Positions 126 to 42,980 of a stretch of 64,000 nt of DNA are shown in pieces (within the stretch, counting starts at the first letter, position 1; each line of letters begins with the position of its first letter). Position numbers and translations under genes: made by a program. Origin of the DNA: an uncultured Clostridium sp. (GTDB lineage Bacteria; Bacillota_I; Bacilli_A; RF39; UBA660); the NCBI GenBank assembly GCA_946414595.1, contig CAMKPE010000008.1, forward strand, positions 1,152 to 65,151, given 5' to 3'. The notes below the pieces were generated by a model that was not told the DNA's origin, did not search any database, and saw only the letters and a program-made list of their open reading frames with translations.

Positions 126-837
126 AATAGAAATATAATATTTCGTTATTGATGACATCTTCCATTTCAAGTTTTCTAACTTTTTTATAAATACCATTAT
201 AAACGTCATCTGGTTGAACTTCGCTTTCGTTCATTGTAACAAACTCTATTTCATCATCTTTAACAATTATTCCATAACTCATTTCTTTAAAAGATTTAAC
301 TAAATAATTGTCTGCTGATTCAATAAATGAATTTTTTAAGTCTCCGTTCTTAGTAGTTATTATTACCATAACTTGTTTATCAGCTATAGGATACATCATA
401 ATTGTTCCATTATCATTTTGATATAACCCATTGTATTTGGAATCAAATATTTTACTATCACCATACCATGAATCAAATATATAATTTATCGTTACTTTTT
501 CTTCACTGCCTTCTTCTTTTATATATACTCCTGAAGGTATATTTTCATTATTTGATTCTAACTTAATATTATCGTCTTCTTTAGTAAATTTATAAGTATA
601 TTGAGCAACTTCTCCTGTTGCAACACCATCTTCAATATACGCAAGTCCATATAATTTATTGCTTCCAGTAAAATATATTTTCTCATCAGTATATTGATAA
701 ACGTTTATTACAACATCATCTTTTTTATAAATTCCTATATACTCAATTTTTTCTTTTTTGTTATTAAATAATAGTAATACTATTCCTGTTATTAATAAGA
801 CTGCACTTATTAGGATTACGATAATTGATTTTTTCAT
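124..837 (-). CDS. Hypothetical N-terminally membrane-anchored protein (237 aa)
   Basis: From the ORF track. MKKSIIVILISAVLLITGIVLLLF is a single N-terminal TM/signal anchor and the rest is hydrophilic. It lies 18 nt downstream of the pilin-like gene 856-3735. Confidence 0.6.
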   Translation of the reverse strand: MKKSIIVILISAVLLITGIVLLLFNNKKEKIEYIGIYKKDDVVINVYQYTDEKIYFTGSNKLYGLAYIEDGVATGEVAQYTYKFTKEDDNIKLESNNENIPSGVYIKEEGSEEKVTINYIFDSWYGDSKIFDSKYNGLYQNDNGTIMMYPIADKQVMVIITTKNGDLKNSFIESADNYLVKSFKEMSYGIIVKDDEIEFVTMNESEVQPDDVYNGIYKKVRKLEMEDVINNEILYFY

Positions 838-21314: not shown

Positions 21315-21342
21315 ATAAAAAGAATACCTGTAGGTATTCTTT
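21315..21342 (-). terminator. Intrinsic terminator after the 510-aa gene
   Basis: Stem aagaatacc/ggtattctt (21320-21341) overlaps the stop codon, and a U-run follows on the minus strand. TGTTATAAT and GGTGA follow before the phosphoesterase ATG. Confidence 0.6.
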
Positions 21343-29000: not shown

Positions 29001-30989
29001 AGGGTTATATCCGTACATTCCACTTTTAAATGTTACAAATATTCCATAAATATCTGCAGTACCTGCATTTATAGCACCATTTCTTCCCGTTAAGTATCCT
29101 AGGAAGAATTTCAATTTAGAATTATCATTCATTGCTCTATCATAGTCACTACCCAAGATTATTGTTTCATTAACAGTTGCAGTACCACTATTATAAGTAC
29201 CATAGTAACCATTATAGAAACCACTTTCGACAATTACTCTAAAGTGTCCATTTAATCCACCATAAATAGTATGCGCTACCATGTTAGCACTATTAGATCC
29301 ATTCGATACATTTCTTCCGATTTTTAAATTGTGTGTATTTGCATTTATATAAGGGCTTTGCCCAATTTGACCAAAGTCATTATTACTAGTTCCTGCATTA
29401 GCTCCAGTAAAATGAATATTTTCTATTACTAAATCATTTTGAAGTGTTAAGTTACCAGTTATACTAATTGATCCAGTAATATTTGTTCCTGTTTCTGAAA
29501 CACCTGTTACTGTATATGGTTTATTTTGTGCTAAGTTAGATGCAGTTAAATTAGTTGTACTTGTATATCTAAATATATTCAAATCTCTTGTTACTAGATA
29601 ATAATATCTATCCTGGTCTACAATATTATTATTAGCTTCTTCAAGAGTATATATAGAATGACCATTAGAGTTATTAACACTATCTTGATATTCAATTAAT
29701 TTATATGCTGTTCTACAGTTATTAGCGTTAGTACATACTGAACCATCACTATTGTAGTATTCACCTGTATTAACCATTGTAGTTGTTGGGTTACTTACTT
29801 GATAGAAGAATCCTCCTGTAACATCCCCTACTTCTAAGTCAAATACATAATGTGTTATTGGTACAGACATTTGATATGATCCATTTGGATCTTCAACAAG
29901 GTCCATATATGTAGCATTATAAGCATTAATTGTTGTTGATGTATTATTTCCTCTAGAGCTAAAATTAGGTACAAATTCAAATGATCCACCAGTATATTCA
30001 CTTCCGCCAACTATACCAGAAGTATTTGCAGTATATGCATAACAAGTCCTGTTATTTCCACATCTTGTATAGTTATTATAACGAACATAAGTATAGGAAT
30101 TACTATTTATGTTAGTTTTGTACCAAATACCCGCAGGCATATATCCATCACTACGCACATAAGTACGAGTATATACCATTGTTGTATAATTTTGTTTCCA
30201 TACTGCTTTTGCAGGATGGTTTTCATATGTAATTATAGTACGCTGTACTGGTTGCATACCCATACTATTGAATGTACTAATATTAGAGTATGATGTAACA
30301 ACATCTGCTCTATACCAACTAGCATTTAAATGAATTGTAAATTCATCTTGTCCATCGCATTCTATATCCATATATCTTGTGTAATTATCTTTTGTAAAAT
30401 ACATTTTAGTATTATTACATACACCACTTGTAGTATCTTCATTTGAATTACATACCCATCCGTTAAAACCATATTCTACTCCATCTACATATGGTCTTTT
30501 ACTAAACAAGTTATCAGGTAATTCTATTCTTATATAATGATGTCCATTACTATTAGTTGCAAGTGTTCCATTAGCATTTCTTTCTAATGCATAATATTTA
30601 TAATAAATATATTTATTAACATTCTCACTACTTAATGGAGAAACATATCCAACTAGTGATGAATCATTAATATCTTTACCATCATAAATTACTCTTACTT
30701 TTACTAAATATTCATCGTTATAATATCCAGTATTAGTAGAACTTGGAATTATATTTTGATTAAATATTTTCGTATAATTTAGTCCTTTAAAATAGTTATA
30801 ATCACTAGCTAAATCATTTATATGCATTGTAGTATCAACTTTTCCAGATACTGGAGCATCAAACGTTGATACAAATTCTCCATAAGTGAAGAACGTAGTT
30901 AATCCAAAACAAAAAAGAAGAAAAGAAAGAGCTGCAAAAATTATTCTTTTTGTTTTAATTTTTATGATCTTCTTTTTCTTCTTTTTCAT
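23055..30989 (-). CDS. Giant secreted or surface protein (2644 aa) with a long parallel-beta-helix-like (V/I)(Y/F)GG(G/S)N repeat array
   Basis: The N-terminus is K-rich, then hydrophobic, ending ..GLTTFFTYGEFVSTF (TasA/SipW-type signal-like). Dozens of ~24-25-aa units containing YGGGN / YGGSN / YGGNN lie between ~25650 and ~29550. The ~850-aa C-terminal region is non-repetitive. There is no LPXTG motif and no C-terminal TM segment. Confidence 0.85.
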   Translation of the reverse strand: MKKKKKKIIKIKTKRIIFAALSFLLFCFGLTTFFTYGEFVSTFDAPVSGKVDTTMHINDLASDYNYFKGLNYTKIFNQNIIPSSTNTGYYNDEYLVKVRVIYDGKDINDSSLVGYVSPLSSENVNKYIYYKYYALERNANGTLATNSNGHHYIRIELPDNLFSKRPYVDGVEYGFNGWVCNSNEDTTSGVCNNTKMYFTKDNYTRYMDIECDGQDEFTIHLNASWYRADVVTSYSNISTFNSMGMQPVQRTIITYENHPAKAVWKQNYTTMVYTRTYVRSDGYMPAGIWYKTNINSNSYTYVRYNNYTRCGNNRTCYAYTANTSGIVGGSEYTGGSFEFVPNFSSRGNNTSTTINAYNATYMDLVEDPNGSYQMSVPITHYVFDLEVGDVTGGFFYQVSNPTTTMVNTGEYYNSDGSVCTNANNCRTAYKLIEYQDSVNNSNGHSIYTLEEANNNIVDQDRYYYLVTRDLNIFRYTSTTNLTASNLAQNKPYTVTGVSETGTNITGSISITGNLTLQNDLVIENIHFTGANAGTSNNDFGQIGQSPYINANTHNLKIGRNVSNGSNSANMVAHTIYGGLNGHFRVIVESGFYNGYYGTYNSGTATVNETIILGSDYDRAMNDNSKLKFFLGYLTGRNGAINAGTADIYGIFVTFKSGMYGYNPDGTPSNDPDGAGAYISGRGTSVTTHATNGIKIEGGSINIILGGSGYRYNNNNGANAVYIGMSGGDVRQIYGGATQNTTYGNRIINISGGVIHYSVLGGSNSNGGTGNNIGIIDGDTIVYVGGTAVVGDQTGSINDVEAGSVFGAGGGADGYPTRGSVKNSHVIINGATITDGVYGGGNFGSTGTQTTQSSTAKIEILSGTIGNVYGGSKSAGFSKNEYKSSSVIDIDISGGTIGNVYGGSNTTGEVYGSVDMDIIGGTITGNVYGGGKGAPTFVSNNIDITIGRNGITNTPIIQGNIYGGSALGIVNSNSSNGSASGNTSITINNGSISGSVFGGGQGDNSTTPYVRGNVTVTVNNGTINDVFGGNDVKGTPNGNINVYINGGNTTNVFGGGNYAPINTSHVYLNGGTITNVYGGGNLANATTTNVHLQGANATTIYGGSNESGTVTTANVTSSSGSATTIYGGNNLGGTTTTSNVTITGGTLSAVYGGGNVATTGTTHLYLNGGTIPNAYAGGNQAGVTSSTNTILNGATVTNLFGGSNNSGNVTASYITTSSGTATNIYGGNNLGGKTLTSNLTINGGNIDTIYGGGNVAETDTTNLTLNGATIANVYGGGNQAGITNKTNVTLQGSTVTTIFGGSNQSGTVVESNITTSSGNATTIYGGNNLGGKTNTTKITTGGGTIATIFGGGNVAETDTTIINLNSGNITDVYGGGNEAGITVSTSVNQNNATVGSIYGGSNQSGTVPVSNIIVAGGTTTNIYGGNNQGGTTTTTHVTVNDGNVTDIYGGGNYADSTTSNVTINKTASTISNIYGGGNQASVDTANVILKGVSRITNVYGGSNMAGAVQESHVSIPANNSSVIVNKIFGGNNRGGRTISANVDLKAGQVTYVYGGGNYADTTGTNTNIENAIINGQVYGGGNQAAVDNNSVLRIVNATISGNVFGGGNLGIVGHDTDVFVQNSTLGANLFAGGNGTTAIVHGNTVLNVGGTTSVANHVFGGGNAAATGTPEANNSTSLVNIAGLTCGGNVYGGANTSVLYGTVNVNIGKDVVTENTLTKGDIDITGTVFGGGEANASGSEIYDFSFISVTTGITINIDANSHNVFDIHGSIFGSGNASSTSGYSNILIKNYGTEANYKTNVSIQRASTVTLENSVIELIGATDRTNEYSDVLFSLSRLDEIALVNNSVIYLKNGTNLVKKFSSGLKTGNTVVKEAVEIDEDGIQSRNVNNKLYVYEGKNINIATNENITAYGEVSGMTFFGMFTYDRNGKVYPAMYNTDYTNTTTVPSSEIVHFTKGSYVLGLHKTNHNYEEDGFYTNYPNKTETDKIFVGYIIPTPEDSNYYMWVVGDQVTSIEIDLTASKYSTLGTYELPLINFSQANTTFSVLGFNYNDLNSEVELVGKDEIPRIAETHELADNRMALVMKSSDNGWLTIGKTTFLTNESYFDGTINYKSENSNTVPTLLFYLYHSKNLETAGSMGTATISMVAIIPIDDLNNEVKRININVNISRALYTTDDYEGTITTGKVYEMFAPGVVNITSKSAFTTYYSLFVEKDETIYREGYHRVLASTYNFPENTKITMIDLLSGTTPEYYYYVVTHDDFVNKQAELQANGDVAYPLSKFIKMGSDNPNNHYNDATKNLLYYDDDLGIAEEEFIFIVDFKEAGIEEDAIEKYLLLELRSSDDEIILSVIGVQQQQLFYNLYANKDSIIDVDGTMSTDEVYIGEEVMLNVTTNFVQQKVNNNPVIDTNFYDYRSGIKISILDSNDNVVNGPSIMGISYTLGNTTYYPRFDGTVRINVAERIANVSSNITINTEGSNLASGNYKMLIESFGSPDGIYYGLTSSDSVTIPFTVKNTIYGLKAVVDSEDLIVDKTTGETQNGTNAMAFNFQFSSGLLNPNIRVSLYRRDYDEVYSSIYHLVDFKDFFTNNFSDTNVEKLYLVFDDPQATMSQVLYLKDNLRSGTYKIVFSLYDNNTYIGEVYKYIIIK
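26480..27665 (-). repeat. Four tandem ~297-bp (99-aa) higher-order repeats within the giant gene
   Basis: Each unit is four coils, e.g. V..S.ITTSSG.AT.IYGGNNLGG / ....S..TI.GG.....YGGGNVA. / TDTT.L.LNG..I..VYGGGNQAG / IT..TNV.LQG.TVT..FGGSNQSG. The units are recognisably repeated at the DNA level. Confidence 0.8.
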
Positions 30990-31003: not shown

Positions 31004-32011
31004 CTATGATGGATTAACTGTTAGTTGTAAATCAAATTGAATATCATCATATGAGGCATCATTTTCACAATCTACATCTTGTCCTTCAATCCACATGTAT
31101 ATTCTCATTTTTGTGATTCCACTTTCTAATGTAAATACAGGTACATATGCTGTGAAATCATTTCTTGTGTAATAATCAATATTTACTGTTTTAAATTTTG
31201 TTGGAAAATATGCTCCTTTAGCATTTCTTAGTAATACGTTATCTGCTTTTGCTATTTCCTCTATTATTCCATCATATATTATTCTATTTGCATTTTCTGT
31301 TTGTGTTATTATTCCATACAAGTTGTTAGCGTGGTTAACTGCTGCTGTTGTATGAATATCATAGTTTGGTTCCCAAGAGTAAACTGTGTTATTTGTTGCT
31401 CCTTTCAAACTTTGTATTTCACTTAAATCAGTTCCTGCTGGAACAGTTCCCTCATTTACAAATACTATTCTTGTAGCATTTGCAATTCCTTTTCCTGTTT
31501 CGTTATTCATATAAGTTACTTTTGAATTACTTGTTAAGTATAATTGTGTATCACTACTTACTTTAAAGAACAAATCAAATACGATAAATTTTCCATCATT
31601 TGATGATCCATTACCTTCTGTTTCAATACTTCTTGTACTTGTTAGTATGTAATCACCAGTTGCATTGTTATCTGTTGTTCCGTAATACATTTTTAGGTAT
31701 CCAGTTGTTGTATCAACTTCAAGTCCACTTGATACTGGCTCTAATGTATAAGGTATTTGGTTAACACTAGTTGGGTAAGTAGTCGCATGTACGTTTGTTA
31801 TATCTTCTGGTGTAATAATTGATTTCCAATTTGTACCATCAGCAGATATTTCTATACCTCCACTTGCTGCTACGTGAACGTTGATTGTATTTACTGTTAC
31901 TATTCTGTTTGATGTGAACCATGCATAAGTTGTTGTTGAAAGCATTGTTAGTGTAAACAAAAATAGTACCAATAAGTAAATGCGTCTTAGTTTTCTATTC
32001 ATTACTATCAT
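31004..32011 (-). CDS. SipW-type-signal exported protein, ~335-360 aa, paralogue of 39545-40576
   Basis: The signal ends ..LSTTTYAWFTSN. Shared blocks with the paralogue are GIEISADGTNWKSI, NQIPYTLEPVS, GKFIVFDLFFKV, WEPNYDIHTTAAVNHA and GITKMRIYMWIEGQDVDCEN. The ORF is open to 32092. I favour ATG 32011, which has GGTGG 9 nt upstream; 32002 and 32020 are also possible. Confidence 0.8.
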   Translation of the reverse strand: MIVMNRKLRRIYLLVLFLFTLTMLSTTTYAWFTSNRIVTVNTINVHVAASGGIEISADGTNWKSIITPEDITNVHATTYPTSVNQIPYTLEPVSSGLEVDTTTGYLKMYYGTTDNNATGDYILTSTRSIETEGNGSSNDGKFIVFDLFFKVSSDTQLYLTSNSKVTYMNNETGKGIANATRIVFVNEGTVPAGTDLSEIQSLKGATNNTVYSWEPNYDIHTTAAVNHANNLYGIITQTENANRIIYDGIIEEIAKADNVLLRNAKGAYFPTKFKTVNIDYYTRNDFTAYVPVFTLESGITKMRIYMWIEGQDVDCENDASYDDIQFDLQLTVNPS

Positions 32012-32786
32012 TTTGTTCATCCACCTTTTCTTCTTCGCTTTCCTTACTTTCTTCAATCTTTTGTAATTCGTTTGGATTAATTCTTTCTTCACGGATATTC
32101 ATATGCATTTTTATATCTCCACCAATAAGTGAATTAACAGTATCAGGATCATCTCCTTCAATCCATACGACTATTGTTATTCTATCTGGTGAGTTTGGAG
32201 CAAGTGTTTTTCTTTCTTCCAAAACAGCAATATATTCTTCGCTTCTTCTATTTCCTTCGTAGAAAGGTTTAGTATCAGGTTCAGCTTCACCTGTATCAGC
32301 ATTCTTTTTAGCATATACAGTAGGTTCACCATTTAAGTAGATCATTATTCTTATTCCTTCATCTACTCTTTTAATAACGTCATCAATTACTACTTCATAC
32401 CAATAGTCTACTGCAACATTACTAATGTTTTCTACATAGAATGTATAAGCTATATAGTTTTGTCCATTATGTGAACCTTCTTTTTCTGTATCTATATCAG
32501 CTGGAATCCATTTAATAGAAATGTTATCCATATAAGGCATTTCATCAGCATATAATTTTCTTTTAATGTCTCTATCTTCTTTAAAGTCGTAGATAACTAA
32601 ACTACTATCACGAGTTGCATCTTTATCAAGTTGAATTACAAATCTACCACCTTTAAAAATAACAGTTAGGATAACGAAAATTGTTGTTAACACACCCAAA
32701 AGAACTAAACTAGCTATTTTAGCCACTTTAGCTGTCTTTTTTCTCTTATTTAATTTCTCAGCAGTAAGCAATACATCTTTAGCCAT
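31995..32786 (-). CDS. Membrane-anchored exported protein related to the locus subunits (263 aa)
   Basis: TM anchor IASLVLLGVLTTIFVILTVIF. The C-terminal block IVVWIEGDDPDTVNSLIGGDIKMHM resembles YMWIEGQDVDCEN of the ~360-aa paralogues. The tail is acidic. The start is moved to MAKDVLL (ATG 32786), which is preceded by AGGAG. Confidence 0.7.
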   Translation of the reverse strand: MAKDVLLTAEKLNKRKKTAKVAKIASLVLLGVLTTIFVILTVIFKGGRFVIQLDKDATRDSSLVIYDFKEDRDIKRKLYADEMPYMDNISIKWIPADIDTEKEGSHNGQNYIAYTFYVENISNVAVDYWYEVVIDDVIKRVDEGIRIMIYLNGEPTVYAKKNADTGEAEPDTKPFYEGNRRSEEYIAVLEERKTLAPNSPDRITIVVWIEGDDPDTVNSLIGGDIKMHMNIREERINPNELQKIEESKESEEEKVDEQNDSNE

Positions 32787-32909
32787 ATTAGTCTCCTGTT
32801 TTCTTATCCTATATACGTAAAATTTTATCATATTTTGCCTATTTTTACAACAATTTGGCTTTAAAAATAATCTTTATGATATACTTAATTTAAAGTAGGA
32901 GGTGTTTGT

Positions 32910-33488
32910 TTGTTAGAGAAGAAATTTTTAATGATTGCACTATCATTAAGCTCTTTATTTTTAACAATGTGCATGATTAACGAAACGTATGCTAAATACG
33001 CTACAGTTGCAACCTCTACTACATCATCTTCAATTGCAAGATGGAAAATTTTAGTTAATAATGATGACATTACTTTAGGTGCTACATCTTCTTCATTAAT
33101 AACACCAGTATTTCCTGGTTCTAGCGATATTAGTGAAGATGTTATAGCCCCAAATGCTGAAGGATATTTTGATTTAGTACTAGACGCAAGTAGTGTTGAT
33201 GTTTCATTTGAATATAGTATTACTATTGGAACCAATCCAAATAGTCCTGTAACCGAACTTGTTGCTACTAAATACGTTATTAATGGTGGCGATGAAATAG
33301 AATTTGGCTCAGAGAAAAAAGTTGAAGGAATTGTAAGACTTGCTGATAGAGATGACCCAATTAATATAAGAGTTTATGTTAAATGGGATGATTCATTAGA
33401 GTTAATGACTAACGCTGAAGATACTGATACTACTGTTGGGAATCAGCAAGGAATGCTTGATGTAACAATTAGAGTTGTACAAATATAA
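32910..33488 (+). CDS. Small TasA-like exported protein (192 aa), paralogue of 41842-42453; the only plus-strand gene in the locus
   Basis: TTG start 5 nt after AGGAGGTG. The signal ends ..CMINETYAKYATV. Shared blocks with the 203-aa paralogue are IARWKILVNNDDI / IAKWQVKVNNDSI, APNAEGYFDL / APGMTGYFDI and IRVYVKWDD / IRVYLSWVN. A strong terminator follows. Confidence 0.75.
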   Translation: MLEKKFLMIALSLSSLFLTMCMINETYAKYATVATSTTSSSIARWKILVNNDDITLGATSSSLITPVFPGSSDISEDVIAPNAEGYFDLVLDASSVDVSFEYSITIGTNPNSPVTELVATKYVINGGDEIEFGSEKKVEGIVRLADRDDPINIRVYVKWDDSLELMTNAEDTDTTVGNQQGMLDVTIRVVQI

Positions 33489-33516
33489 AAGATACACAAA
33501 TGTGTATCTTTTTTTA
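33488..33516. terminator. Bidirectional intrinsic terminator between convergent genes
   Basis: Stem aaagatacaca / tgtgtatcttt with a 2-nt loop, a T-run downstream and an A-rich run upstream. Confidence 0.7.
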
Positions 33517-34137
33517 ATCGTTTGTTTGTACTGCTGATATTTTAATTGTTATTTCTATACTTGGTTCTTGCGGATAATCAGAATGATATTGGTATGATCT
33601 ATTTCCCCAGTATGTATCCAAAGAATCATTACCAGATTCAAATGGCCATTCTACGTTTATCGAGAATGTTGCATAACCAGTACCTGCATCTAATTCACCT
33701 GTAGTTAAATCAAATGTGATACTAAATGGATAATCATCTGCGAGCATATTTTTAAGCATATCGCTAGTTAATACAGTACCATCTACTGTATATAAAGTAC
33801 CTAATATCTTAGCACTTATTATTTCATAAGCAATTTCAGCATCACGCTCACCACGATTGTATGCGGTAATGCTATCTGTATAATCATCCATACCTGGTCT
33901 AATACTAGGAATATTAAAACTAATATATTCTTCTACCTGTGTATTATTTTGAGTAAACATAATCTCCCACGAATCAATGTGAGCTGTTATACTACCAGAT
34001 ACTTTTGTTGCATATATAAACCAAGCAAATGTAGTTGACGAAAATGTAATCACAAGCAAAATAAGAGTACTAAGACGTACTCTTTTGAAAATAATCTTTA
34101 ATATTTCAATTAATGTTACTTTCTTTTTAGAGCTCAT
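33514..34137 (-). CDS. SipW-type-signal exported TasA-like protein (207 aa)
   Basis: The signal ends ..FSSTTFAWFIYATKV. It has the TasA-like strand FNIPSIRPGMDDYTDSITAYNRGE. RBS AAGGAG lies upstream, and the start is 2 nt after the sipW stop. Confidence 0.75.
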   Translation of the reverse strand: MSSKKKVTLIEILKIIFKRVRLSTLILLVITFSSTTFAWFIYATKVSGSITAHIDSWEIMFTQNNTQVEEYISFNIPSIRPGMDDYTDSITAYNRGERDAEIAYEIISAKILGTLYTVDGTVLTSDMLKNMLADDYPFSITFDLTTGELDAGTGYATFSINVEWPFESGNDSLDTYWGNRSYQYHSDYPQEPSIEITIKISAVQTND

Positions 34138-34773: not shown

Positions 34774-35961
34774 CTATTCTAAGTTTAATGAATCAAATCT
34801 TTCAACATATTGTTTTATTGCCATCTTAAACTTATCATGTATTTCCTTGTCGTTAACAACATTTTTATATTTTACAACTGTATAATACTTATCAATTAAA
34901 TCAAGTATTTCTTTCTTATCAATAGCATTCATTTCAATTAATTTTTGAAGCATACTATTAACAATCTTTTTAGATACTTCTTTCTTTCTACTATCTGTTT
35001 TTCTTGATGATCCATTAGCATATAAATTAAGTACTAAATAGTTAAGTAAGAAAATTTCATCTTGATAATCTTTAGGTTTACCTTCTACTTTTTCATTTTT
35101 TGTTTCTTTAACATTTTTAGTTTCTGTATTCATATGCTCTTGCATATAATTCCATAATTTTAATGCATATTGGAAGTTTGTATTTTTAAGTATTACATTT
35201 GTCTTTTTAATTGGTGAAGTAACTAGTGTTATATGTAATTTTTGTATTGTTTTATATGTTTCTGATCCAGTTAAATCAGTAACTTTATTTTCTAATTTTT
35301 CTATACGTTCTAGTACTTTACCAATACTATTTTCATCTTGAGAATCCTCTTCTAGATTACTATCTAATACGATATTCATACTGTATTTTGTGTTACCTAG
35401 TTTTGTTGATGCATTATATTTTAATTTCTTATTATCTTTTGCACAAGTAACACCTTCAAGAGCTTTTTTCTTGAAGTTTATGTATGCTCTCATATTCTGA
35501 ATTAAGCTGTAGATAAACCTATTTTCATAAGTATCATAGCTCTCTTCTTTGTTGATATTTAAAATCTTAGAGGGTTTAACTTCTCCTGTTTTTTTATCAA
35601 ATTTTTGTATTAAGTTAGTATTTCTTGAAAGGTGCTTAATACTTTCTACAGTAACACGTCTTGCAAGTTCTACTTTAACTATATCTTCTTCATTTATTAT
35701 GAATCTATTAGGGTTTCTTAAGATATTATCGATGTACCTAACTGTGTCTTCCATTATGGTTAACCATTCTGTTGAAAACTCTGTTTTATCGTAGTCTATA
35801 TCTATGTCTAAACTAGATATAATACCATTATTGAATTCTTCAATTGTTTCATTTGAATGTTCATTATACAAATCTGTTATTTGAAGTTCTCCGACATTAG
35901 TATCATCAGTTTCAACTAGTTCTGATACTTCAGTATCTTCAGTTTCAACAACTTCATCCAT
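34774..35961 (-). CDS. McrC N-terminal / DUF2357-like protein without a recognisable nuclease domain (395 aa)
   Basis: Acidic N-terminus, then ILRNPNRFIINEEDIVKVELARRVTVESIKHL...SYDTYENRFIYSLIQNM, which resembles the McrC/DUF2357 core (E. coli McrC NEDTLANRIIKSTL, from memory). It lies directly downstream of the McrB-like gene. I saw no canonical PD-(D/E)xK motif. Confidence 0.6.
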   Translation of the reverse strand: MDEVVETEDTEVSELVETDDTNVGELQITDLYNEHSNETIEEFNNGIISSLDIDIDYDKTEFSTEWLTIMEDTVRYIDNILRNPNRFIINEEDIVKVELARRVTVESIKHLSRNTNLIQKFDKKTGEVKPSKILNINKEESYDTYENRFIYSLIQNMRAYINFKKKALEGVTCAKDNKKLKYNASTKLGNTKYSMNIVLDSNLEEDSQDENSIGKVLERIEKLENKVTDLTGSETYKTIQKLHITLVTSPIKKTNVILKNTNFQYALKLWNYMQEHMNTETKNVKETKNEKVEGKPKDYQDEIFLLNYLVLNLYANGSSRKTDSRKKEVSKKIVNSMLQKLIEMNAIDKKEILDLIDKYYTVVKYKNVVNDKEIHDKFKMAIKQYVERFDSLNLE

Positions 35962-36000
35962 AATATCACCCCAATTCTTTTTATTCTTTTTAATTCTTTA

Positions 36001-37524
36001 TTAAGTAAGTTTCTTAAGTCTTAATACATATTCAATACATTCTTTCATTTTATCTTTACCAAATGTATTGTCCAAAAACTCTACGAATCCATCAATTTCA
36101 TCTCTTATGTAAGAGATATTTAATTGTTCAAATTTTCTTAAGATCTTCTTAGCAATGAAATAATCTACTCCTTCAATTTCATCTCCGCCACAGGCAACAT
36201 ATACTGGTACGAATTTCTTTAAGTGAGAAACGATACGGTTACCAAATGCGATACGGAAATGTTGTATTACATAGTTATCCATTTCTTCGATTTTATTAAG
36301 TGTATCTTCTGATACAGGATTCTTTTCCATTGCATCTTTAAATAGACTGTTGATATAACTAAAGTTAATATCTTGTGCAGGTATTTCTTCAGGTGTAAAT
36401 ACCTCACCTTTTTCATTGATATCTATTGGCATAGCACGGTCGTAAACTTTATCTGTAACCATAAATGTTGAGTCGTCGTTATTGATTGTACCTATGTACC
36501 ATACATTCTCTGGTATTTTAAGTTTTCCACCTATAACATGTTTTGGATCGTTCTTCCAAGAGGATGCAACTAATTCTACTATCCACTCATCGTGGTTAGG
36601 CATTTCTAGGATTGATAACATTTCTGCAAAGTAATACTCAACACGGGAGATATTCATCTCGTCCAAGATTACTGTATAAACGTCATCTGTATATCCAGCT
36701 ATATATAATTCTTTTAATACTTCTGTTTCATTAAACTTTTTAGTAAACTCGTTGAAGTAACCAAAAAGCTCTGTTCTATCACGCCATGATGGTTGTACTG
36801 ATGCGATACATGAGTCATGCTTTAAGAATTTTCCCCAAGCATAAGCAAGTGATGTTTTACCTGTTCCTGAAATACCTTGTAATATAACAAGTTTTGTTGA
36901 TGCAAGAGCAGATATAAATAATCTAATCATCTGTGGTCTATAGTAAAGTCTTAACTGCGATGCAGCGAAGTTTCTAAAGTTACTGCATAATTCTTCAAGA
37001 GTAAATGAATTACCATAGTTTTGTATTTTGTAGTTAGCATATTCTTGGTCAATATCAAATAACTTAGAGAATCTTGGTGCTTCAGTTGGTCCATTATCTT
37101 CTTGATTTTCACTTACATCTTCAGTATCTGGTTCATTAGGTTTGATACCTAAATGTGATACTTTCATTGCAAGTATTTCTTCACGTTCTTTTACAAGTGT
37201 TGCAACTTTGTTATTAAGTTCTCCAACTTCTTCAAGAAGTGATTCTTGATCTACTAAAGTCTTTCTAAATCTTAATAATCTTCTTGCTGCTAAGTATACT
37301 AGTAAACATAGTACAAAGATTAATGCTAAGACTACAATTATAGCAAGTACAACAAGTATCCATTCACCTACTGTAAAATCATCTTTATAGTCATTAATAA
37401 CTGCAATATATTCTTTAATATTGAATATCTTTGCTACTCCATTTACTATTCCCATTACTATTTCTAAAAGTCCTGAAAATAATTGTGAAAGAAATTCATA
37501 CAAAAATTTTAAAAACGTATCCAT
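36001..37524 (-). CDS. Membrane-tethered McrB-family AAA+ (GTPase-type) protein (507 aa)
   Basis: Two N-terminal hydrophobic segments followed by RRLLRFRK (positive-inside) and a coiled coil. Walker A is LQGISGTGKT. VILDEMNISRVEYYFAEMLSILE and IPENVWYIGTINNDDSTFMVTDKVYDRAM parallel McrB DEINRANLSKVFGE and [16 protein letters not shown]..RRRF (from memory). Confidence 0.8.
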   Translation of the reverse strand: MDTFLKFLYEFLSQLFSGLLEIVMGIVNGVAKIFNIKEYIAVINDYKDDFTVGEWILVVLAIIVVLALIFVLCLLVYLAARRLLRFRKTLVDQESLLEEVGELNNKVATLVKEREEILAMKVSHLGIKPNEPDTEDVSENQEDNGPTEAPRFSKLFDIDQEYANYKIQNYGNSFTLEELCSNFRNFAASQLRLYYRPQMIRLFISALASTKLVILQGISGTGKTSLAYAWGKFLKHDSCIASVQPSWRDRTELFGYFNEFTKKFNETEVLKELYIAGYTDDVYTVILDEMNISRVEYYFAEMLSILEMPNHDEWIVELVASSWKNDPKHVIGGKLKIPENVWYIGTINNDDSTFMVTDKVYDRAMPIDINEKGEVFTPEEIPAQDINFSYINSLFKDAMEKNPVSEDTLNKIEEMDNYVIQHFRIAFGNRIVSHLKKFVPVYVACGGDEIEGVDYFIAKKILRKFEQLNISYIRDEIDGFVEFLDNTFGKDKMKECIEYVLRLKKLT

Positions 37525-37534
37525 ACTTCACCAC

Positions 37535-38509
37535 CTATTCATTAATAACAATAATCTTCTTATTCTTTTCTTTTAAGAACTTAGAGTTATTATCTACAAT
37601 TATGTAGCTAAACATCTCAAATAAGATGAAATCATTCTTATCTATATCATCATTTACTTTGACTGCAAACATATATCCATCTCTAATCATGTTTTTAATA
37701 TCATTACCATATTTAGTATAATCTTCATATTTTATCTTAAATATAGTTTGGCCTTTAAAACAGTCATCACTAGAAATCTCTAATAGTTTTGCTAGTCTTT
37801 CTTTATCTTCAAATAAAGAAGTTGCAAAGTCAATTAAGTAGAATCTATCAAATACACACCCACGTATATCGTTAATTATCATACTAGTTAGTAAGTAGTA
37901 TTCTACTAATAATTTATCTTCATTAATAACTCCTTCATGGAATACTCTATCTATTGCAAATTCACTATATAATCTAGGAAATTTAATGTTATATTTTAGT
38001 TCAACATCTACTAAGTTATCTTTAGATGTTGTATATTTCTTTATCTCAAAATCACTTGTCTTGAAGTAATCAAAGAACTTCTTTCTTTTATCTTCAATAT
38101 TTTTTAATAGTTTAGTTATTTCTTCTCTAAACAATGTTACATCATCAAGATTATAAAGGTTTCTATGATATTCTGATACTAATCTTACTAGTGTTTTATA
38201 TGTTATTGTTTTAACTCCATCAAGGCATAATACATAGTTGAATACAGTAAACATTTCTATTAATCTGTCTTTAACTGATTCATCTTCACCTTCACTTAGT
38301 TTCATTACAGCTTTTCTTAAGTGATTGAATATCCTTTCTTCGAAAGGTGTAGCTTCATCACTATAAAAGTTGTAATATCTATTTTCCATATAAATATCTA
38401 ATAGTTTACTAAAGGCTTCTTCTTCATAATAATCAGTAGATAGAACTTGTTTAGCGAATAATGTAATATTATTCTTTTCGAAGTCTATATACTCCTTTAG
38501 CATATTCAT
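37535..38509 (-). CDS. Hypothetical cytoplasmic protein (324 aa); C-terminal half possibly a degenerate EAL-like fold
   Basis: From the ORF track. No TM segment. It is tightly packed with its neighbours (10-11 nt gaps). The EAL resemblance is weak: FYLIDFATSLF, IFKIKYED, DGYMFAVKVNDDI, FSYIIVD. Confidence 0.55.
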   Translation of the reverse strand: MNMLKEYIDFEKNNITLFAKQVLSTDYYEEEAFSKLLDIYMENRYYNFYSDEATPFEERIFNHLRKAVMKLSEGEDESVKDRLIEMFTVFNYVLCLDGVKTITYKTLVRLVSEYHRNLYNLDDVTLFREEITKLLKNIEDKRKKFFDYFKTSDFEIKKYTTSKDNLVDVELKYNIKFPRLYSEFAIDRVFHEGVINEDKLLVEYYLLTSMIINDIRGCVFDRFYLIDFATSLFEDKERLAKLLEISSDDCFKGQTIFKIKYEDYTKYGNDIKNMIRDGYMFAVKVNDDIDKNDFILFEMFSYIIVDNNSKFLKEKNKKIIVINE

Positions 38510-38520
38510 AAAACCACTTC

Positions 38521-39447
38521 CTATTCACTTGAGAATGTAATAATTGGTGTATTTGTTTCAAACGGATAAGTATAATCGTTATTCGTATGTAACTTATAAA
38601 ATCTTACAGATGTACTTGATAAAGCATCTGTACCAAATGTTACACTGTTGATGTAATCAAATCCATCGCTCATTGTTGTTGTCGTTGTTCTTTTAGCTTG
38701 TAGATATGCCTCACTAGTATTATCTAATCTAAATAAGTTTGGATCGAATGTTAATGTAATTAATGCTGATGTACAATGAGTTTTGTTTTCAGGGGATAAC
38801 GCTAAATACTCTCTTATTTCCATCCTATCACCTACACTATAATCACCAAAGGCTTCAATTACTTCGTAGTAATCTAGTGTATTAGTAATATTAAAGTCCA
38901 AATAAGGGCTTCCCATTGAATCAACTATTTCATATGATAGCCCAATCTCACCAACGTTGATTGTAAACTTACCACTTAGTGTTTTTGTATAAGGGCTTGT
39001 TGCACTTGTTTCTACTTCAAGCCATATAGAGTCTCCATCTCCTAACTGTACTGTTGGAGTCATAGTAATAGTAAAATAATCAGTATTAGAACCATTCATG
39101 ATTAAACCAGTGTCTTTAGATGCTGTACAAGAAACATTAGTTGAACATTCATAGCTAATCGTGTAACTAATATTGTCACTTGATGCTACAATATTATTTT
39201 TTTTGCTATTCATATTAATCGTAATTGTTACTGGTTCAACTCCTGACCAGTTATCAAGTTGGTAATATGATTCATCTTCTGATAACTTATCACTATTAAA
39301 GTAAAAGTTTTTAGTACTTAAATAATAATTTCTAAGTCCACGATATATATATCTACCATATGTACCAATTAGAAAGACACCTGTTAAAAGAGCAACAATT
39401 ATAATTATATTTTTGTTGTTTAGCTTCTTCTTTCTACTCTTTTTCAT
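38521..39447 (-). CDS. Exported protein with a SipW-type-like signal (308 aa)
   Basis: The K-rich N-terminus and hydrophobic segment end ..GVFLIGTYGRYIY. The mature part is beta-rich and S/T-rich. RBS GTGGAGAG lies upstream. Confidence 0.7.
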   Translation of the reverse strand: MKKSRKKKLNNKNIIIIVALLTGVFLIGTYGRYIYRGLRNYYLSTKNFYFNSDKLSEDESYYQLDNWSGVEPVTITINMNSKKNNIVASSDNISYTISYECSTNVSCTASKDTGLIMNGSNTDYFTITMTPTVQLGDGDSIWLEVETSATSPYTKTLSGKFTINVGEIGLSYEIVDSMGSPYLDFNITNTLDYYEVIEAFGDYSVGDRMEIREYLALSPENKTHCTSALITLTFDPNLFRLDNTSEAYLQAKRTTTTTMSDGFDYINSVTFGTDALSSTSVRFYKLHTNNDYTYPFETNTPIITFSSE

Positions 39448-39504: not shown

Positions 39505-39537
39505 ATAAAAAAAATACATCCTTTTAGGATGTATTTA
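39505..39537 (-). terminator. Strong intrinsic terminator after the ~343-aa putative major subunit gene
   Basis: On the minus strand the stem is aaatacatcc / ggatgtattt with a 4-nt loop and an 8-nt U-run. A TTGTAA-17-TATTCT promoter-like element (with TGn) follows. Confidence 0.7.
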
Positions 39538-39544
39538 ATTTGTA

Positions 39545-40576
39545 TTATTCACTTAATGTTGTAATTACTAAATCGTAAGTAATTGTTCCTCCTGATGCAT
39601 TGTTTTCACAGTCAACATCTTGACCTTCAACCCACATGTATACTCTTACTTTAGTTATACCAGCTTGTAGAGTAAATAATTGTAAGTTAGAAGCAAATCC
39701 TGCACCTGCTTTAGTTGAATGAGTTACAGTAACAGATCCAAATAATGATCCAAAGTCAGTTACATAATCAAGTGGATCTTCAACTTGAACTAATACGTTA
39801 TTTGTTGTAGTTATATCAGCTTTAACTCCTGCATAAGCAATTTGTGAACCACCAGTTTGTGAAGTTGTTACACCATATGTATCACGTGCGTGTGATACAG
39901 CTGCTGCTGTATGAACATCATAGTTTGGTTCCCAAATATATTTAGTAATTGCTGCAGCTTCATCGTTATCCAAATCTAATCCCATGTTTTGAATGTTTTG
40001 AACTGTATCTCCGGCATCAGCATTTCCAAGCATTACAAATCCAATTCTTGAAGCATTCTTGATACCTGTATCAGTATCATCTGTAGTTTTAACGCCAGAG
40101 TTAGTTGATAGATATACTGTTGTAGGAGCTGTTACTTTAAAGAATAAATCGAAAGCTATAAACTTACCAGAAGTTCCGCTAACTTCAGTGTCTCTCTCAG
40201 CAGTTAAAATATAATTTCCGCCAGCATTACTTGTTATTTGTCCATAGTACATTTTCATCTTACCAGTGTTATCAATTTCACCAATAGTAGATACTGGTTC
40301 CATAGTGTCTGGTAATTGGTTAACGCTATTTCCATAAGTAGTAGATGCTCCAGTTATATCTGCTTCTTGAACTATAGACTTCCAGTTAGTTCCATCAACA
40401 GAAATTTGTATACCGTTTTTAGCTTCTACATTAACAGTTAATGTATTAACTTTAACAGTTTGGTTTGCTGTAAACCATGCATAAGTTGTTGTTGTAAACA
40501 TTACAGTTGTGAAAAACAACGCTATTAAAAGTATTAATAATCTTCTCTTACGATTCCTTTTTCTTCTTTTCTCCAT
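39545..40576 (-). CDS. SipW-type-signal exported protein, putative major subunit (343 aa), paralogue of 31004-32011
   Basis: The start is moved to MEKRRKRNRKRR (ATG 40576), which has GGAGGG 7 nt upstream. The signal ends ..FTTTTYAWFTAN. It shares blocks with the paralogue (see 31004). It has its own promoter and terminator. Confidence 0.85.
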   Translation of the reverse strand: MEKRRKRNRKRRLLILLIALFFTTVMFTTTTYAWFTANQTVKVNTLTVNVEAKNGIQISVDGTNWKSIVQEADITGASTTYGNSVNQLPDTMEPVSTIGEIDNTGKMKMYYGQITSNAGGNYILTAERDTEVSGTSGKFIAFDLFFKVTAPTTVYLSTNSGVKTTDDTDTGIKNASRIGFVMLGNADAGDTVQNIQNMGLDLDNDEAAAITKYIWEPNYDVHTAAAVSHARDTYGVTTSQTGGSQIAYAGVKADITTTNNVLVQVEDPLDYVTDFGSLFGSVTVTHSTKAGAGFASNLQLFTLQAGITKVRVYMWVEGQDVDCENNASGGTITYDLVITTLSE

Positions 40577-40632
40577 TTTTATTCCCTCCAATATAAATAT
40601 CCTCACGCGATATTTTTGTCTAAGATAATTGT

Positions 40633-40661
40633 AGTATACCAATTGACATTATCTTTATCAA
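40633..40661 (-). promoter_or_regulatory. Sigma-A-type promoter for the putative major subunit gene
   Basis: On the minus strand, TTGATA (40661-40656), a 17-nt spacer ending TGG, and TATACT (40638-40633). Repeated TGTAAAC/GTTTACA motifs lie just upstream (40665-40707). Confidence 0.6.
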
Positions 40662-40714: not shown

Positions 40715-41845
40715 TTATTCGTCTGTATCTAGCTTTTGCTTTGCATTTACTGATATTTCTATATTTTCGGCAACATCTTGGTAATTATGTGAAGTATATC
40801 CACTTCCAAAGGTAATTGTCAATTTGTAATAATCTGTATAATCATTATTGTAATTTAATGGCCTACTTGACGTTTTAATTATTTTGAAATATGTACCATC
40901 ATCATCACTAATAATTTCTTCTTCTCCTATTATAGGTAGATCTACTCCACCATTAGTAAGATAGAATTCATAACCAAGTGGCAAGTTAGTAGTGGCTTTT
41001 ATCTCTACATAATAGTCCATATTAACTTCTGATCTATGTTCTCCATCTGTATTAGAAACACTGAATGTATATGAATATGTATCTCCAGGTTTCATATTAG
41101 TAAGATTTATCTCATCGTGTGTATACGTATCTTTTGCTAAAAAGAATGCTATATCAACAGGAGCTGCAGCTCTTGTTTCTGTTCTCAATCTAGAAAAAGT
41201 ATATGGTATTAAGAATGTTAATAATGCTAATAAGATAACAAATATACATATTTCAATTTTAAGTCTATTATTGTGTTTTAACTTCTCTATCATTTCTCTT
41301 CTTCTTTCAACATTATCTTCTTTTATTTCTCTTACTTGTTTTTCTTCTTTTATCTTTAGCATCCTTATTGTATATAACATAAGTATCATTGTTATAAAGC
41401 ATGCTATCATAATCTTTGGTGTAGTAAGTACTTTTATCCATACTCCTACTTTAGAAAAAGTTCTAACAACTTTACCTATAACCATATCTTTATTTATAGG
41501 TTTATCTATTGTGTTATTAGCATCTCCTCTTGTTATATAAGTATCACCTTTTATTTCAGTGATTCTGTGGGTTATTATCGCACCATTACTTTTGAATGAT
41601 ATAACATCCCCTACTTTGTAGTCATCATCAATTTTAACTAAGATTACATCGTATTTGTCAATTGTTGGTGACATACTACCACTTATTACTTCAAATACTG
41701 TATAACCAAATACATTAGAATAATCTTGTTTTAATACTTTAACTGAAAAAAAGTTATATACAGCAAGTAACATAGGTAATAGCATCATTATACTAAGTAT
41801 TGTTGTAATAACTCTTCTTGTTATTTTTAATATTCTATTTTTCAT
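40715..41845 (-). CDS. SipW-type signal peptidase fused to a C-terminal TasA-like exported domain (376 aa)
   Basis: Residues 1-~165 form a peptidase: TM, ISGSMSPTIDKYD, IITHRITEI, TRGDANNTID, second TM. A KE-rich linker follows, then a third hydrophobic segment ending ..LIPYTFSRLRTETRAAAP. The C-terminal domain carries INLTNMKPGDTYSYTFSVSNTDG (cf. TasA VNLSNLKPGDKLTKDFQFENNG, from memory). There is an ATGA overlap with the upstream gene. Confidence 0.8.
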   Translation of the reverse strand: MKNRILKITRRVITTILSIMMLLPMLLAVYNFFSVKVLKQDYSNVFGYTVFEVISGSMSPTIDKYDVILVKIDDDYKVGDVISFKSNGAIITHRITEIKGDTYITRGDANNTIDKPINKDMVIGKVVRTFSKVGVWIKVLTTPKIMIACFITMILMLYTIRMLKIKEEKQVREIKEDNVERRREMIEKLKHNNRLKIEICIFVILLALLTFLIPYTFSRLRTETRAAAPVDIAFFLAKDTYTHDEINLTNMKPGDTYSYTFSVSNTDGEHRSEVNMDYYVEIKATTNLPLGYEFYLTNGGVDLPIIGEEEIISDDDGTYFKIIKTSSRPLNYNNDYTDYYKLTITFGSGYTSHNYQDVAENIEISVNAKQKLDTDE

Positions 41846-42453
41846 GGTGTAATCTCCTCTATACTAGTCAAAGTATCACCATCCATATATTGTAGAATTT
41901 CAACTGTTATTGGTATATCTATACTATTATTGTATACTTTACCTAAATCAGAGTCTTTTTCATTATTATTCTCATCATTAACCCAACTTAAGTATACTCT
42001 TATCGTGTTAGTTTCATTATCTTCGATATCTTCTAATGTAATTATATTACTATATGTAAATGTACCCGTATGTACTATTGGTTTATCATCTATTTCTTTT
42101 ATTTCTTCAATTACAAATTGGTCTTCATCTAAATTAGAGAAATCAAATGTTACATTATAGATAATTGATACATCTGTATCATTTGGATCAATTTCTATAT
42201 CAAAGTACCCAGTCATTCCTGGCGCTACTTTTCCTTCTTTAACATTTGCTGATGAATTCCAATTAATACTATCAACTGTAAAAGTTGATTCGCTTCCATT
42301 TATACTATCATTATTAACTTTTACTTGCCATTTAGCTATATCAATCTGACTTGTATTAGTTCTTTCACTTTCAAACAATCCATACGATCCTATTAAAAGA
42401 TATATTCCTATTAAGAAAAAGAATGGTGCTAAGACCATTATATGTTTTTTCAT
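41842..42453 (-). CDS. Small TasA-like exported protein (203 aa), paralogue of 32910-33488
   Basis: The signal ends ..LLIGSYGLFESE. The blocks shared with the plus-strand paralogue are listed there. It has 4-nt overlaps with both neighbours. Confidence 0.75.
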   Translation of the reverse strand: MKKHIMVLAPFFFLIGIYLLIGSYGLFESERTNTSQIDIAKWQVKVNNDSINGSESTFTVDSINWNSSANVKEGKVAPGMTGYFDIEIDPNDTDVSIIYNVTFDFSNLDEDQFVIEEIKEIDDKPIVHTGTFTYSNIITLEDIEDNETNTIRVYLSWVNDENNNEKDSDLGKVYNNSIDIPITVEILQYMDGDTLTSIEEITP

Positions 42454-42980
42454 TCTTTATTTTTAATTTCTTTATAGATTGCGTATATTTCGTATATGAA
42501 AGCCAAGAATAATGGAAATACAACTATAAATAAGAATCCCCATTTAGATTGTAATACATAAAGTAATTGTCCTAAGAAATGGAATGCTGTTGTAGATTCA
42601 TGTGTACCTAAAACATATTCGCTTGATACTGATGTATTATCTTTTAAATGGAATGTTGTTTCTTTATCACTTATTTTTTCTTTTCTTACAACTTCTACGT
42701 ATCTAATACGATTTCCTGCAGGAATATCATAGAAGAATACTTTTTGTCCGGTTTCAACATCATCGTTTGATACTGGCTTAATAAATAAAAGCGTATTATT
42801 TTCATAATCTTCTATTTGTTTTTCCCCATCTTCTCCTTCTTCAACAAGAACTAAATATCTTCCTGCAAATGAAGAAACTCCATAGTCATTTCTATTTAAT
42901 AAAAATGCTGTTGTAAATACTATTAGTATTAAATATATTGATACTACTATACTTAAAATAATTTTCAAAGTCTTATTCAT
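42450..42980 (-). CDS. SipW-like membrane protein lacking catalytic residues (pseudo-peptidase, 176 aa)
   Basis: It has the same N-TM / beta-core / C-TM layout and spacing as the two SipW proteins (e.g. DVETGQKVFFYD vs DIKVGDNIVYQG). The Ser, His and Asp motifs are replaced: LVEEGEDG for GSM(E/S)P, IRYVEVV for THR(V/I), LKDNTS for GDAN. It is the first gene of the locus. Confidence 0.6.
   Translation of the reverse strand: MNKTLKIILSIVVSIYLILIVFTTAFLLNRNDYGVSSFAGRYLVLVEEGEDGEKQIEDYENNTLLFIKPVSNDDVETGQKVFFYDIPAGNRIRYVEVVRKEKISDKETTFHLKDNTSVSSEYVLGTHESTTAFHFLGQLLYVLQSKWGFLFIVVFPLFLAFIYEIYAIYKEIKNKE

Follow-up and report, generated by a model that had tools for sequence, protein, structure and literature searches.

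McrBC represents the textbook GTP-dependent restriction motor. A branch of McrB GTPases carrying an NxD signature, usually followed by E or D, was described in a census of McrBC systems by Bell et al. (2024; eLife, PMC11090510). One clade of this branch was named CoCoPALM, with its treatment deferred to a later paper. Its members were described as an NxD GTPase fused to an FtsB-like domain, consisting of a transmembrane (TM) helix and a coiled coil, and encoded adjacent to a McrC homologue, which usually carries a fused coiled coil itself, in association with genes of the signal peptidase family (PMC11090510). According to the same source, DUF2357 constitutes the N-terminal domain of McrC, which binds and activates McrB. 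No follow-up literature on CoCoPALM was found, and the class named in 2024 was never analysed in print or studied experimentally. Here, we analysed a trio of genes in a stretch of 64,000 nucleotides (nt) from contig CAMKPE010000008.1 of an uncultured Clostridium sp. (termed the window; all coordinates are window positions). The trio encodes a protein of 324 amino acids (aa), a McrB-like GTPase of 507 aa and a DUF2357 protein of 395 aa, and is followed by a gene for a SipW-type signal peptidase. Because of its NxD signature, its TM anchor, its DUF2357 partner and the adjacent signal peptidase gene, the trio is a member of the already named CoCoPALM class. Its architecture is consequently not new, although a preliminary description made from the sequence alone knew of no such described system. 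New here are the confirmation of the NxD signature for this lineage, the quantification of synteny and constraint, and an EAL-like candidate third subunit that is mutually exclusive with genuine EAL genes. The trio is not a restriction module, whether conventional or inserted. We consider it likely that within a CoCoPALM system it provides the part located in cytoplasm and membrane, namely a two-subunit GTPase machine that derives from McrBC and is built into a SipW-dependent surface-structure locus. Such a machine would work without a DNA-reader domain and without a detectable nuclease, and would be inherited together with the ~21-kb locus.

Comparing the trio with E. coli McrBC, the AAA+ GTPase core and a partner gene directly downstream, containing the domain that activates the GTPase in McrC, were found in common. 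Differences concern the signature (NxD here versus NxxD), the N-terminus (TM anchor and stalk versus DNA-binding N-domain), the partner, in which no PD-(D/E)xK nuclease was detected, and the surroundings, which are a strongly conserved, vertically inherited secretion and surface locus not near restriction-modification genes. With the CoCoNuT systems the trio shares the NxD GTPase, and the McrC homologue of CoCoNuTs is likewise often without an active nuclease. However, CoCoNuTs have long coiled coils and always HEPN or other nucleases (PMC11090510), whereas a helical segment of ~35 residues, a TM anchor and EAL-like, SipW and exported neighbours were found here, with no HEPN or nuclease gene. 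For CoCoPALM itself, a class described in two sentences and a figure supplement, the agreement covers the NxD GTPase with N-terminal TM and helical segments, the adjacent DUF2357 gene, the linkage to a signal peptidase and the failure to detect a nuclease. In departure from the published description, the helical segments here are short and without clear coiled-coil character, Pfam detects no homology to FtsB, and an EAL-like third gene is present; neither EAL nor c-di-GMP (cyclic di-GMP) is mentioned in the main text of PMC11090510 or in its preprint.

Relatives of the GTPase were collected by an exhaustive HMMER search, which yielded 8435 matches at an E-value (E) <= 1e-3 and 767 at E <= 1e-30. 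Scanning one genome per species in GTDB, 230 species were found to encode a relative, and the best 80 of these 230, with 70-95% GTPase identity to the window, were examined. A metagenome scan added 80 further loci (49-95% GTPase identity), annotated with local profiles, of which 65 were used for the downstream gene, 32 included both flanks and 41 had at least 5 kb upstream. These ~160 related loci were complemented by seven more distant ones, all distinct, with 35-51% identity.

The McrB-family motif set recognized earlier in the GTPase is present, and its placement in this family was upheld. E. coli McrB was the top and sole match among PDB sequences (6hz4, E 1.9e-4, residues 199-369), and BLASTP against K-12 McrB aligned the Walker and signature regions, with about 170 alignable residues. 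This alignment also showed that two E. coli McrB strings quoted in the preliminary description were correct. The NCBIfam McrB model matched at E 1.4e-5, far below its cutoff, and Pfam AAA_5 was matched in 24 of 33 family members. Walker A (GISGTGKT) comprises residues 217-224, the Walker B region VILDEMNISRVEYYFAEMLSILE residues 285-307 and the signature region IPENVWYIGTINNDDSTFMVTDKVYDRAM residues 337-365. Taken alone, the window signature N348-N349-D350-D351 is readable as NxxD or NxD, and it had at first been counted among the McrB-specific motifs. The HMMER relatives share the motif G-T-[AIV]-N-x-D-[D/E/Q]-S-T, and in 33 proteins of the TM class, with identities as low as 31%, N348 and D350 never change whereas position 351 does (D/E/Q), which makes the signature NxD and not NxxD. 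Equally invariant over this range are G217, G220, G222, K223, T224, D288 and R363. With Walker A, Walker B, sensor and arginine positions intact, the 507-aa protein is an NxD-clade McrB-like AAA+ GTPase and apparently active. Over 120 clusters the GTPase domain was found 92-99% conserved, residues 121-160 less so.

The N-terminal part is organized as a hydrophobic helix (~8-33), a TM segment (~55-80), a helical stalk (~88-122) and an acidic linker (~126-150), which precede the GTPase domain (~190-370) and a C-terminal lid. A membrane anchor is in place and the DNA-reader domain of McrB is gone, as had been noted: the segment ~55-80 is strongly hydrophobic (Kyte-Doolittle value 3.7), the RRLLRFRK following it places the GTPase in the cytoplasm, and family searches with the window protein and its relatives matched no DNA-binding family in the N-terminus. 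Two hydrophobic segments and a coiled coil had been proposed. Only the segment ~55-80 stood clearly; the other, ~8-33, is weaker (Kyte-Doolittle value 1.64) and may be a second TM or an interfacial helix, and the coiled coil did not rise above background, as the heptad score of residues 92-119 within the charged helical stretch of about 35 residues was reached by 19 of 200 shuffled sequences. Besides the TM class, a third class of close NxD GTPases with 550-700 aa and about four N-terminal TM segments was observed (representatives P0381-P0479).

The suspected McrC/DUF2357 character of the 395-aa partner was borne out by Pfam, which matched DUF2357 above the gathering cutoff (E 6e-13, residues 55-200) and did so in all 38 aligned partners. 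The lack of a canonical PD-(D/E)xK core could be extended to the family: no nuclease family matched in any of the 38 partners or in the longer partners (604-790 aa) of distant loci, and the conservation map of the 395-aa family contains no conserved D...(D/E)xK pattern. As the AlphaFold single-sequence model was unusable (predicted local distance difference test, pLDDT, of 34), this absence applies to the sequence level. Conservation is confined to residues 66-157 and 243-274, with an acidic, variable N-terminus and a poorly conserved stretch of ~115 residues at the end. The family profile gave no match to PDB sequences, and its hhalign comparison with E. coli McrC was not significant. LDLIDKYY near the C-terminus was rejected as a nuclease relic since it is not conserved outside close relatives, in agreement with the superficial likeness to McrC originally attributed to it. 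Testing for coiled coils, the score of the best window (204-231) was reached by 75 of 200 shuffles; a 790-aa partner in a distant locus gave weak coiled-coil-type matches. A weak FtsA SHS2 match recurred at residues ~323-367 in 14 of 38 relatives (best E 0.003, below significance), which is curious beside the published FtsB-like label of the GTPase N-terminus. In another locus (L081:2681-4036), where the GTPase is 44% identical, a ribosomal L15/L27A-like domain (PF00828, E 7e-15) was found at the C-terminus of the DUF2357 partner, either an odd fusion or a gene-call or assembly artefact.

The three open reading frames are encoded on the same strand and tightly packed, as initially reported, with gaps of 11 nt between p308 and the 324-aa gene, 10 nt to the GTPase gene, 39 nt to the DUF2357 gene and 7 nt to sipW (gene designations are given in Table 1). 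The unit from p308 to p207 is bracketed by two terminator-like hairpins, one of them directly 3' of p207, and a hairpin scan detected no convincing internal terminator, as had been stated before. In essentially all of the 80 species loci the order is p176, (p203, sipW-fusion, subunit), p308, 324-aa gene, GTPase, DUF2357, sipW, p207, p192 (inverted), p278, subunit and giant protein. The position of sipW is kept in 80 of 80 wherever the contig allows, p207 is conserved after it, and p308 is always found directly upstream of the 324-aa gene in related loci. Within the metagenome loci the DUF2357 gene lies directly downstream of the GTPase gene in 64 of 65, and where both flanks are present sipW and an exported-family gene were each found in 32 of 32. 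A check for conserved linkage to SipW had been called for early on, and this linkage is kept across the ~160 loci. Most of the seven distant loci retain sipW and homologous exported proteins, among distant CoCoPALM loci homologues of the 365-aa subunit and of p278, and other distant loci adjoin giant LRR or transglutaminase-type surface proteins. Carriers among the 80 species are uncultured gut and rumen Bacilli labelled Tenericutes, Erysipelotrichaceae, Clostridium sp. CAG:914, CAG:628 and CAG:567, which we take to belong to the GTDB order RF39.

In the same 80 loci the DUF2357 protein shows 42-74% identity to the window (91% in the closest locus) and the 324-aa protein 25-58% (90% in the closest locus). 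Compared to the closest relative, the ratio of nonsynonymous to synonymous substitution rates (dN/dS) was 0.042 for the GTPase, 0.081 for the DUF2357 gene, 0.065 for the 324-aa gene, 0.050 for p308 and 0.10-0.26 for the exported subunits; ffh gave 0.023. The GTPase gene is the best-conserved and most constrained gene of the locus. A search of 2.9 million viral contigs gave no more than 3 weak GTPase matches (26-37% identity). A recent horizontal insertion was considered and rejected, as the GC content (guanine plus cytosine) of the locus is ordinary and synteny is conserved.

Two variants of the module deserve mention. In L092:1-8695 the GTPase is 42% identical, has an unusual Walker A (GSVGSGKT) and is encoded together with a homologue of the 324-aa family and a DUF2357 gene. 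In L085:6692-14923, belonging to a class with two TM segments, two paralogous GTPase genes flank the DUF2357 gene, followed by genes for a 1141-aa transglutaminase/AgI-II-type surface protein and a 2193-aa protein; a 1670-aa LRR_5 protein is encoded upstream, and no sipW was detected in this locus.

The 324-aa protein, listed as unknown before, is EAL-like by its predicted fold. Searches of Pfam, NCBIfam and PADLOC gave no family match for the window protein, and Pfam EAL was matched in 1 of 41 relatives (E 0.02). Using a 41-sequence alignment, AlphaFold (AF2) produced a model with a pLDDT of 91.5 and a predicted template modelling score (pTM) of 0.87, in which a helical N-domain (1-147) is followed by a beta-hairpin and an alpha/beta domain (~154-322). 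Foldseek against PDB returned almost exclusively EAL domains among the top ~43 matches, with a probability of about 1.0, including Bd1971, FimX, BifA, MorA, LapD and RocR; FimX and LapD are non-catalytic c-di-GMP receptors. The viral fold search in BFVD found nothing, and the family profile against PDB sequences gave only spurious helical matches. Comparing the family by hhalign with one, three and ten genuine EALs, E-values of 0.65, 0.48 and 0.13 were obtained, none of them significant; the ten-EAL alignment, non-significant as it is, runs co-linear with the EAL strand order. From the catalytic set that was checked (EAL Glu, Asn, DDFG, KxD Lys, EGVE Glu and Gln), the equivalent of the EAL Glu is 44% conserved in the family, and the DDFG and KxD equivalents are variable.

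The distribution of genes points in the same direction. A member of the 324-aa family occurs in 24 of the 41 metagenome loci with sufficient upstream sequence and a Pfam EAL gene in 10, with neither in 7 and both in none. Each of the 8 cluster EALs tested proved to be a genuine EAL domain standing alone (E 1e-26 to 4e-52). Most are degenerate, and their alignment shows a graded decay that begins with the intact EAL of L082 and ends with an almost fully decayed one. The order in L082 is signal peptidase, GTPase, an intact 325-aa EAL (Pfam E 2.9e-53) with every catalytic motif, and DUF2357, and in L086 a GGDEF gene plus two EAL genes surround the module. We therefore regard it as fairly probable that the 324-aa protein derives from an EAL protein, has diverged strongly, is non-catalytic and occupies the same slot as the cluster EALs. 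That EAL genes take the place of its gene in sister clusters suggests a regulatory subunit of the c-di-GMP type, or what remains of such a subunit. A decayed EAL-type domain encoded together with an NTPase implicated in a surface appendage is also known from the FimX-PilZ-PilB and LapD systems. Here the likeness is at the level of the fold only, FimX and LapD being among the best fold matches, and both the NTPase family (PilB-type ATPase) and the pilus type of FimX-PilZ-PilB differ.

The peptidase encoded directly behind the trio was matched by TIGR02228 above its cutoff (E 2.9e-23) and by the SipW model (E 1.7e-19), and GSMEP and THRV motifs are visible in its 208-aa sequence. In 7 of 8 exported proteins of the locus, [TS][YF][AG]x[FY] follows right after the hydrophobic core, a common motif that fits one dedicated peptidase. 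The TasA signal carries a similar motif. In this respect the locus resembles the tapA-sipW-tasA operon of B. subtilis and sipW-bsaABC of C. perfringens, in which a dedicated SipW-type peptidase is encoded with several exported proteins whose signal sequences end in a characteristic common motif. Unlike these operons, which have no cytoplasmic NTPase or EAL, it contains three SipW-like genes and a gene for a 2644-aa surface protein, and no cargo similarity to TasA was detected. The former label TasA-like for the exported neighbours was not confirmed, as neither Pfam nor NCBIfam gave a TasA/camelysin signal and profiles of three exported families (A3-A5) matched no TasA among PDB sequences. A mention of McrB in the C. 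perfringens BsaA paper proved to be merely an E. coli strain genotype and provides no link.

For the function of the trio, the preliminary description had left the choice between a McrBC-derived motor recruited to the surface structure and a defence module inserted into the locus. The comparative data strongly favour a role in the surface structure, because gene order is fixed, linkage to sipW and DUF2357 is kept, constraint is Ffh-like, the family is rare in viral contigs and GC content is ordinary; the sole positive evidence for an inserted module was a PADLOC match on the shared GTPase domain. A nuclease-free, membrane-tethered derivative under such constraint, locked in a secretion and fibre locus of hundreds of gut species, implies that a restriction motor was re-used for cell-surface biology. 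In the mechanism we propose, the GTPase would assemble into a ring at the cytoplasmic side of the membrane, to which its TM helices would hold it via the short stalk and the flexible acidic linker. The DUF2357 subunit would insert into this ring and stimulate GTP hydrolysis, as McrC does with McrB. The EAL-like subunit could act as regulator or adaptor and would be either a c-di-GMP receptor or what is left of such a receptor; the analogy here is with FimX, which has a degenerate EAL and controls the type IV pilus motor. The GTP cycle would then serve assembly, export, anchoring or turnover of the SipW-processed subunits and not the cutting of nucleic acids. More specifically, and only tentatively, the locus might encode an uncharacterised surface-filament machine in which a restriction-derived, GTP-powered AAA+ ring is gated by an EAL subunit resembling c-di-GMP receptors and either drives or licenses the assembly of the giant adhesin and the subunits processed by SipW. 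If true, this would be a new pathway of pilus biogenesis that matches none of the sortase, type IV, chaperone-usher, curli or TasA routes, and it would show clearly how a motor from defence was exapted to build the cell surface. The carriers are abundant uncultured gut and rumen Bacilli, and such a structure may bear on how they attach to host or particles. The EAL-like subunit makes the hypothesis of c-di-GMP-type control directly testable, and conserved residues for mutation are now defined.

We are aware that several observations weigh against a surface machine under EAL-type control. Ring, GTPase activity, subunit contacts and output are all modelled on E. coli McrBC by analogy. A rigid transmission of force across the membrane is hard to reconcile with the flexible acidic linker that separates stalk and GTPase. 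TasA-type fibres of Bacillus are not known to require a cytoplasmic NTPase for assembly, and cargo homology to TasA could not be shown by the searches given above. The best Foldseek match of the 324-aa model reached E 2.3e-4, but TM-scores (template modelling) were low (0.3-0.46), and the EAL link of this protein is without significant sequence support. A GGDEF regular expression found nothing in the window, nor in the 80 metagenome loci, a crude pattern that misses degenerate cyclases or ones elsewhere in the genome. Applying Rfam with gathering and E-value thresholds to the window, no riboswitch or other RNA family was detected, including the c-di-GMP riboswitch. As neither a GGDEF motif nor a c-di-GMP riboswitch was found in the window, c-di-GMP signalling may be absent from the organism. 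The remaining points concern defence: the other NxD systems are predicted conflict systems (PMC11090510), and the L092 module directly follows Phage_holin_1 and DUF859 genes and may be a prophage-borne or phage-adjacent variant.

The alternative that survives best, although we hold it to be rather improbable, is a regulatory switch instead of a motor. GTPase and DUF2357 activator would serve as timer or checkpoint with the EAL-like protein as input, gating SipW processing or the secretion or expression of subunits and performing no work on them. The flexible linker (~126-150) and the lower conservation of residues 121-160 would suit such a switch, as would the receptor-like degenerate EAL partner and the SipW genes directly adjoining the module on both sides in many layouts; assembly of TasA-type fibres in Bacillus is not known to need an energy source. 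However, proteins of the AAA+ McrB family work as motors and, when McrC stimulates them, hydrolyse GTP processively, and the extreme conservation over the whole GTPase surface fits a multi-contact machine. Sequence analysis cannot tell the two models apart.

Clearly less credible, and in our view unlikely, is a module for conflict or for defence against phages. It would be a McrBC or CoCoNuT derivative without nuclease that acts at the membrane and merely resides in the locus. It could sense infection via the fibre, a possible phage receptor, and respond by blocking entry, shedding fibres or abortive infection. PADLOC assigned the GTPase to the candidate system PDC-M26A (E 2e-34), for which no paper was found under the term PDC-M26, but this match covers the shared GTPase domain alone, and neither the 395-aa nor the 324-aa partner was matched. 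The NxD clade's predicted defence systems and the holin- and DUF859-adjacent relative speak for such a module, and so does an NxD relative without TM segment in an operon with VWA, Ser/Thr kinase, PP2C and Upf1-like helicase genes and without sipW, which is a conflict-system context. Against it stand the failure to find a nuclease or another recognisable effector, position and order fixed across ~160 loci with sipW in 32 of 32, a dN/dS near that of Ffh, unlike typical fast-evolving and patchy defence genes, and the near absence of the family from viral contigs together with ordinary GC. A division or envelope factor positioning the surface structure at septum or poles, or joining division, is very improbable, as the FtsB-like annotation in PMC11090510 was accompanied only by a Pfam DivIC match in 1 of 33 GTPase relatives (E 0.012) and the SHS2 match of the partner, both below significance, no division genes lie in the neighbourhood, and the positive-inside rule (RRLLRFRK) would put the stalk on the cytoplasmic side, opposite to FtsB. 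The McrBC-derived surface-structure module thus remains the reading we prefer.

The whole surface-structure locus spans ~21 kb, about 21341-42980. Its features are compiled in Table 1.

Table 1. Genes and terminator-like hairpins of the surface-structure locus.
Feature	Position	Strand	Basis and remarks
p176, SipW-like membrane protein, first gene of locus	42450-42980	-	Weak SipW match, E 8e-4
p203, exported	41842-42453	-	SYGLF motif; paralogue of 32910-33488
Second SipW-type peptidase, 376 aa, with fused C-terminal TM and extracellular region	40715-41845	-	TIGR02228, E 2.2e-20; TM segments
365-aa exported protein, candidate major subunit	39545-40642	-	Signal motif TTTYAWFT; paralogue of 31004-32092
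Terminator-like hairpin between 365-aa subunit gene and p308	39512-39536	-	11-bp stem, then TTTTTAT
p308, exported or membrane-anchored, first gene of the trio's transcription unit	38521-39447	-	Hydrophobic segment 9-34, then TYGRY
324-aa EAL-like protein	37535-38509	-	Open reading frame list; helical N-domain 1-147 and EAL-like alpha/beta domain ~154-322; predicted cytoplasmic
CoCoPALM-type McrB-like AAA+ GTPase, 507 aa	36001-37524	-	McrB homology; NxD motif; TM prediction
DUF2357 (McrC N-terminal) partner, 395 aa	34774-35961	-	Pfam DUF2357
SipW/archaeal-type signal peptidase I, 208 aa	34140-34766	-	TIGR02228; SipW model
p207, exported, last gene of unit	33514-34137	-	Signal-like N-terminus ending TTFAWF
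Terminator-like hairpin at unit end, after p207	33487-33512	-	11-bp stem
p192, exported	32910-33488	+	TYAKY motif; inverted orientation conserved
p278, membrane-anchored or exported	31995-32831	-	TM prediction; homologues in distant loci adjoining EAL genes
362-aa exported protein	31004-32092	-	Signal motif TTTYAWFT
2644-aa repeat-rich surface protein, candidate adhesin	23055-30989	-	Signal motif FTYGEF; conserved neighbour; no NCBIfam match
510-aa protein without TM or family match	21341-22873	-	Follows 2644-aa gene

The strong hairpin with its T-run sits right after the gene for the 365-aa subunit and upstream of p308, a pattern expected if this subunit were a highly expressed major component, with read-through feeding the GTPase unit. 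p192 is the sole plus-strand gene of the locus, and its inversion is kept in nearly all related loci, which implies a conserved promoter of its own. p176 constitutes the third SipW-like gene. Inspected by eye, its 176-aa product lacks the catalytic Ser (SM.P) and His (THR) and may be a pseudo-peptidase; the position of the gene is kept in most related loci. The gene for the 510-aa protein travels with that of the 2644-aa protein even in permuted loci, where the order is giant protein, 510-aa protein and p176 onward, and it may encode a further cytoplasmic component.

Outside the locus, a HerA-like DUF87 ATPase (44398-46152, minus strand, E 1e-24) is encoded just upstream of ffh. It adjoins the locus in the closest relatives alone and is probably unrelated to it. 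At the other end of the window, genes at 856-3735, 4763-8083 and 8096-10921, all on the minus strand, encode two very large proteins (959 and 1106 aa) and a 941-aa AAA ATPase. A type IV pilin N-methylation motif (PF07963) stands at the start of both large proteins, which also contain Listeria-Bacteroides (Flg_new) repeats; these giant pilin-like proteins would represent a second, unrelated surface system in the window.

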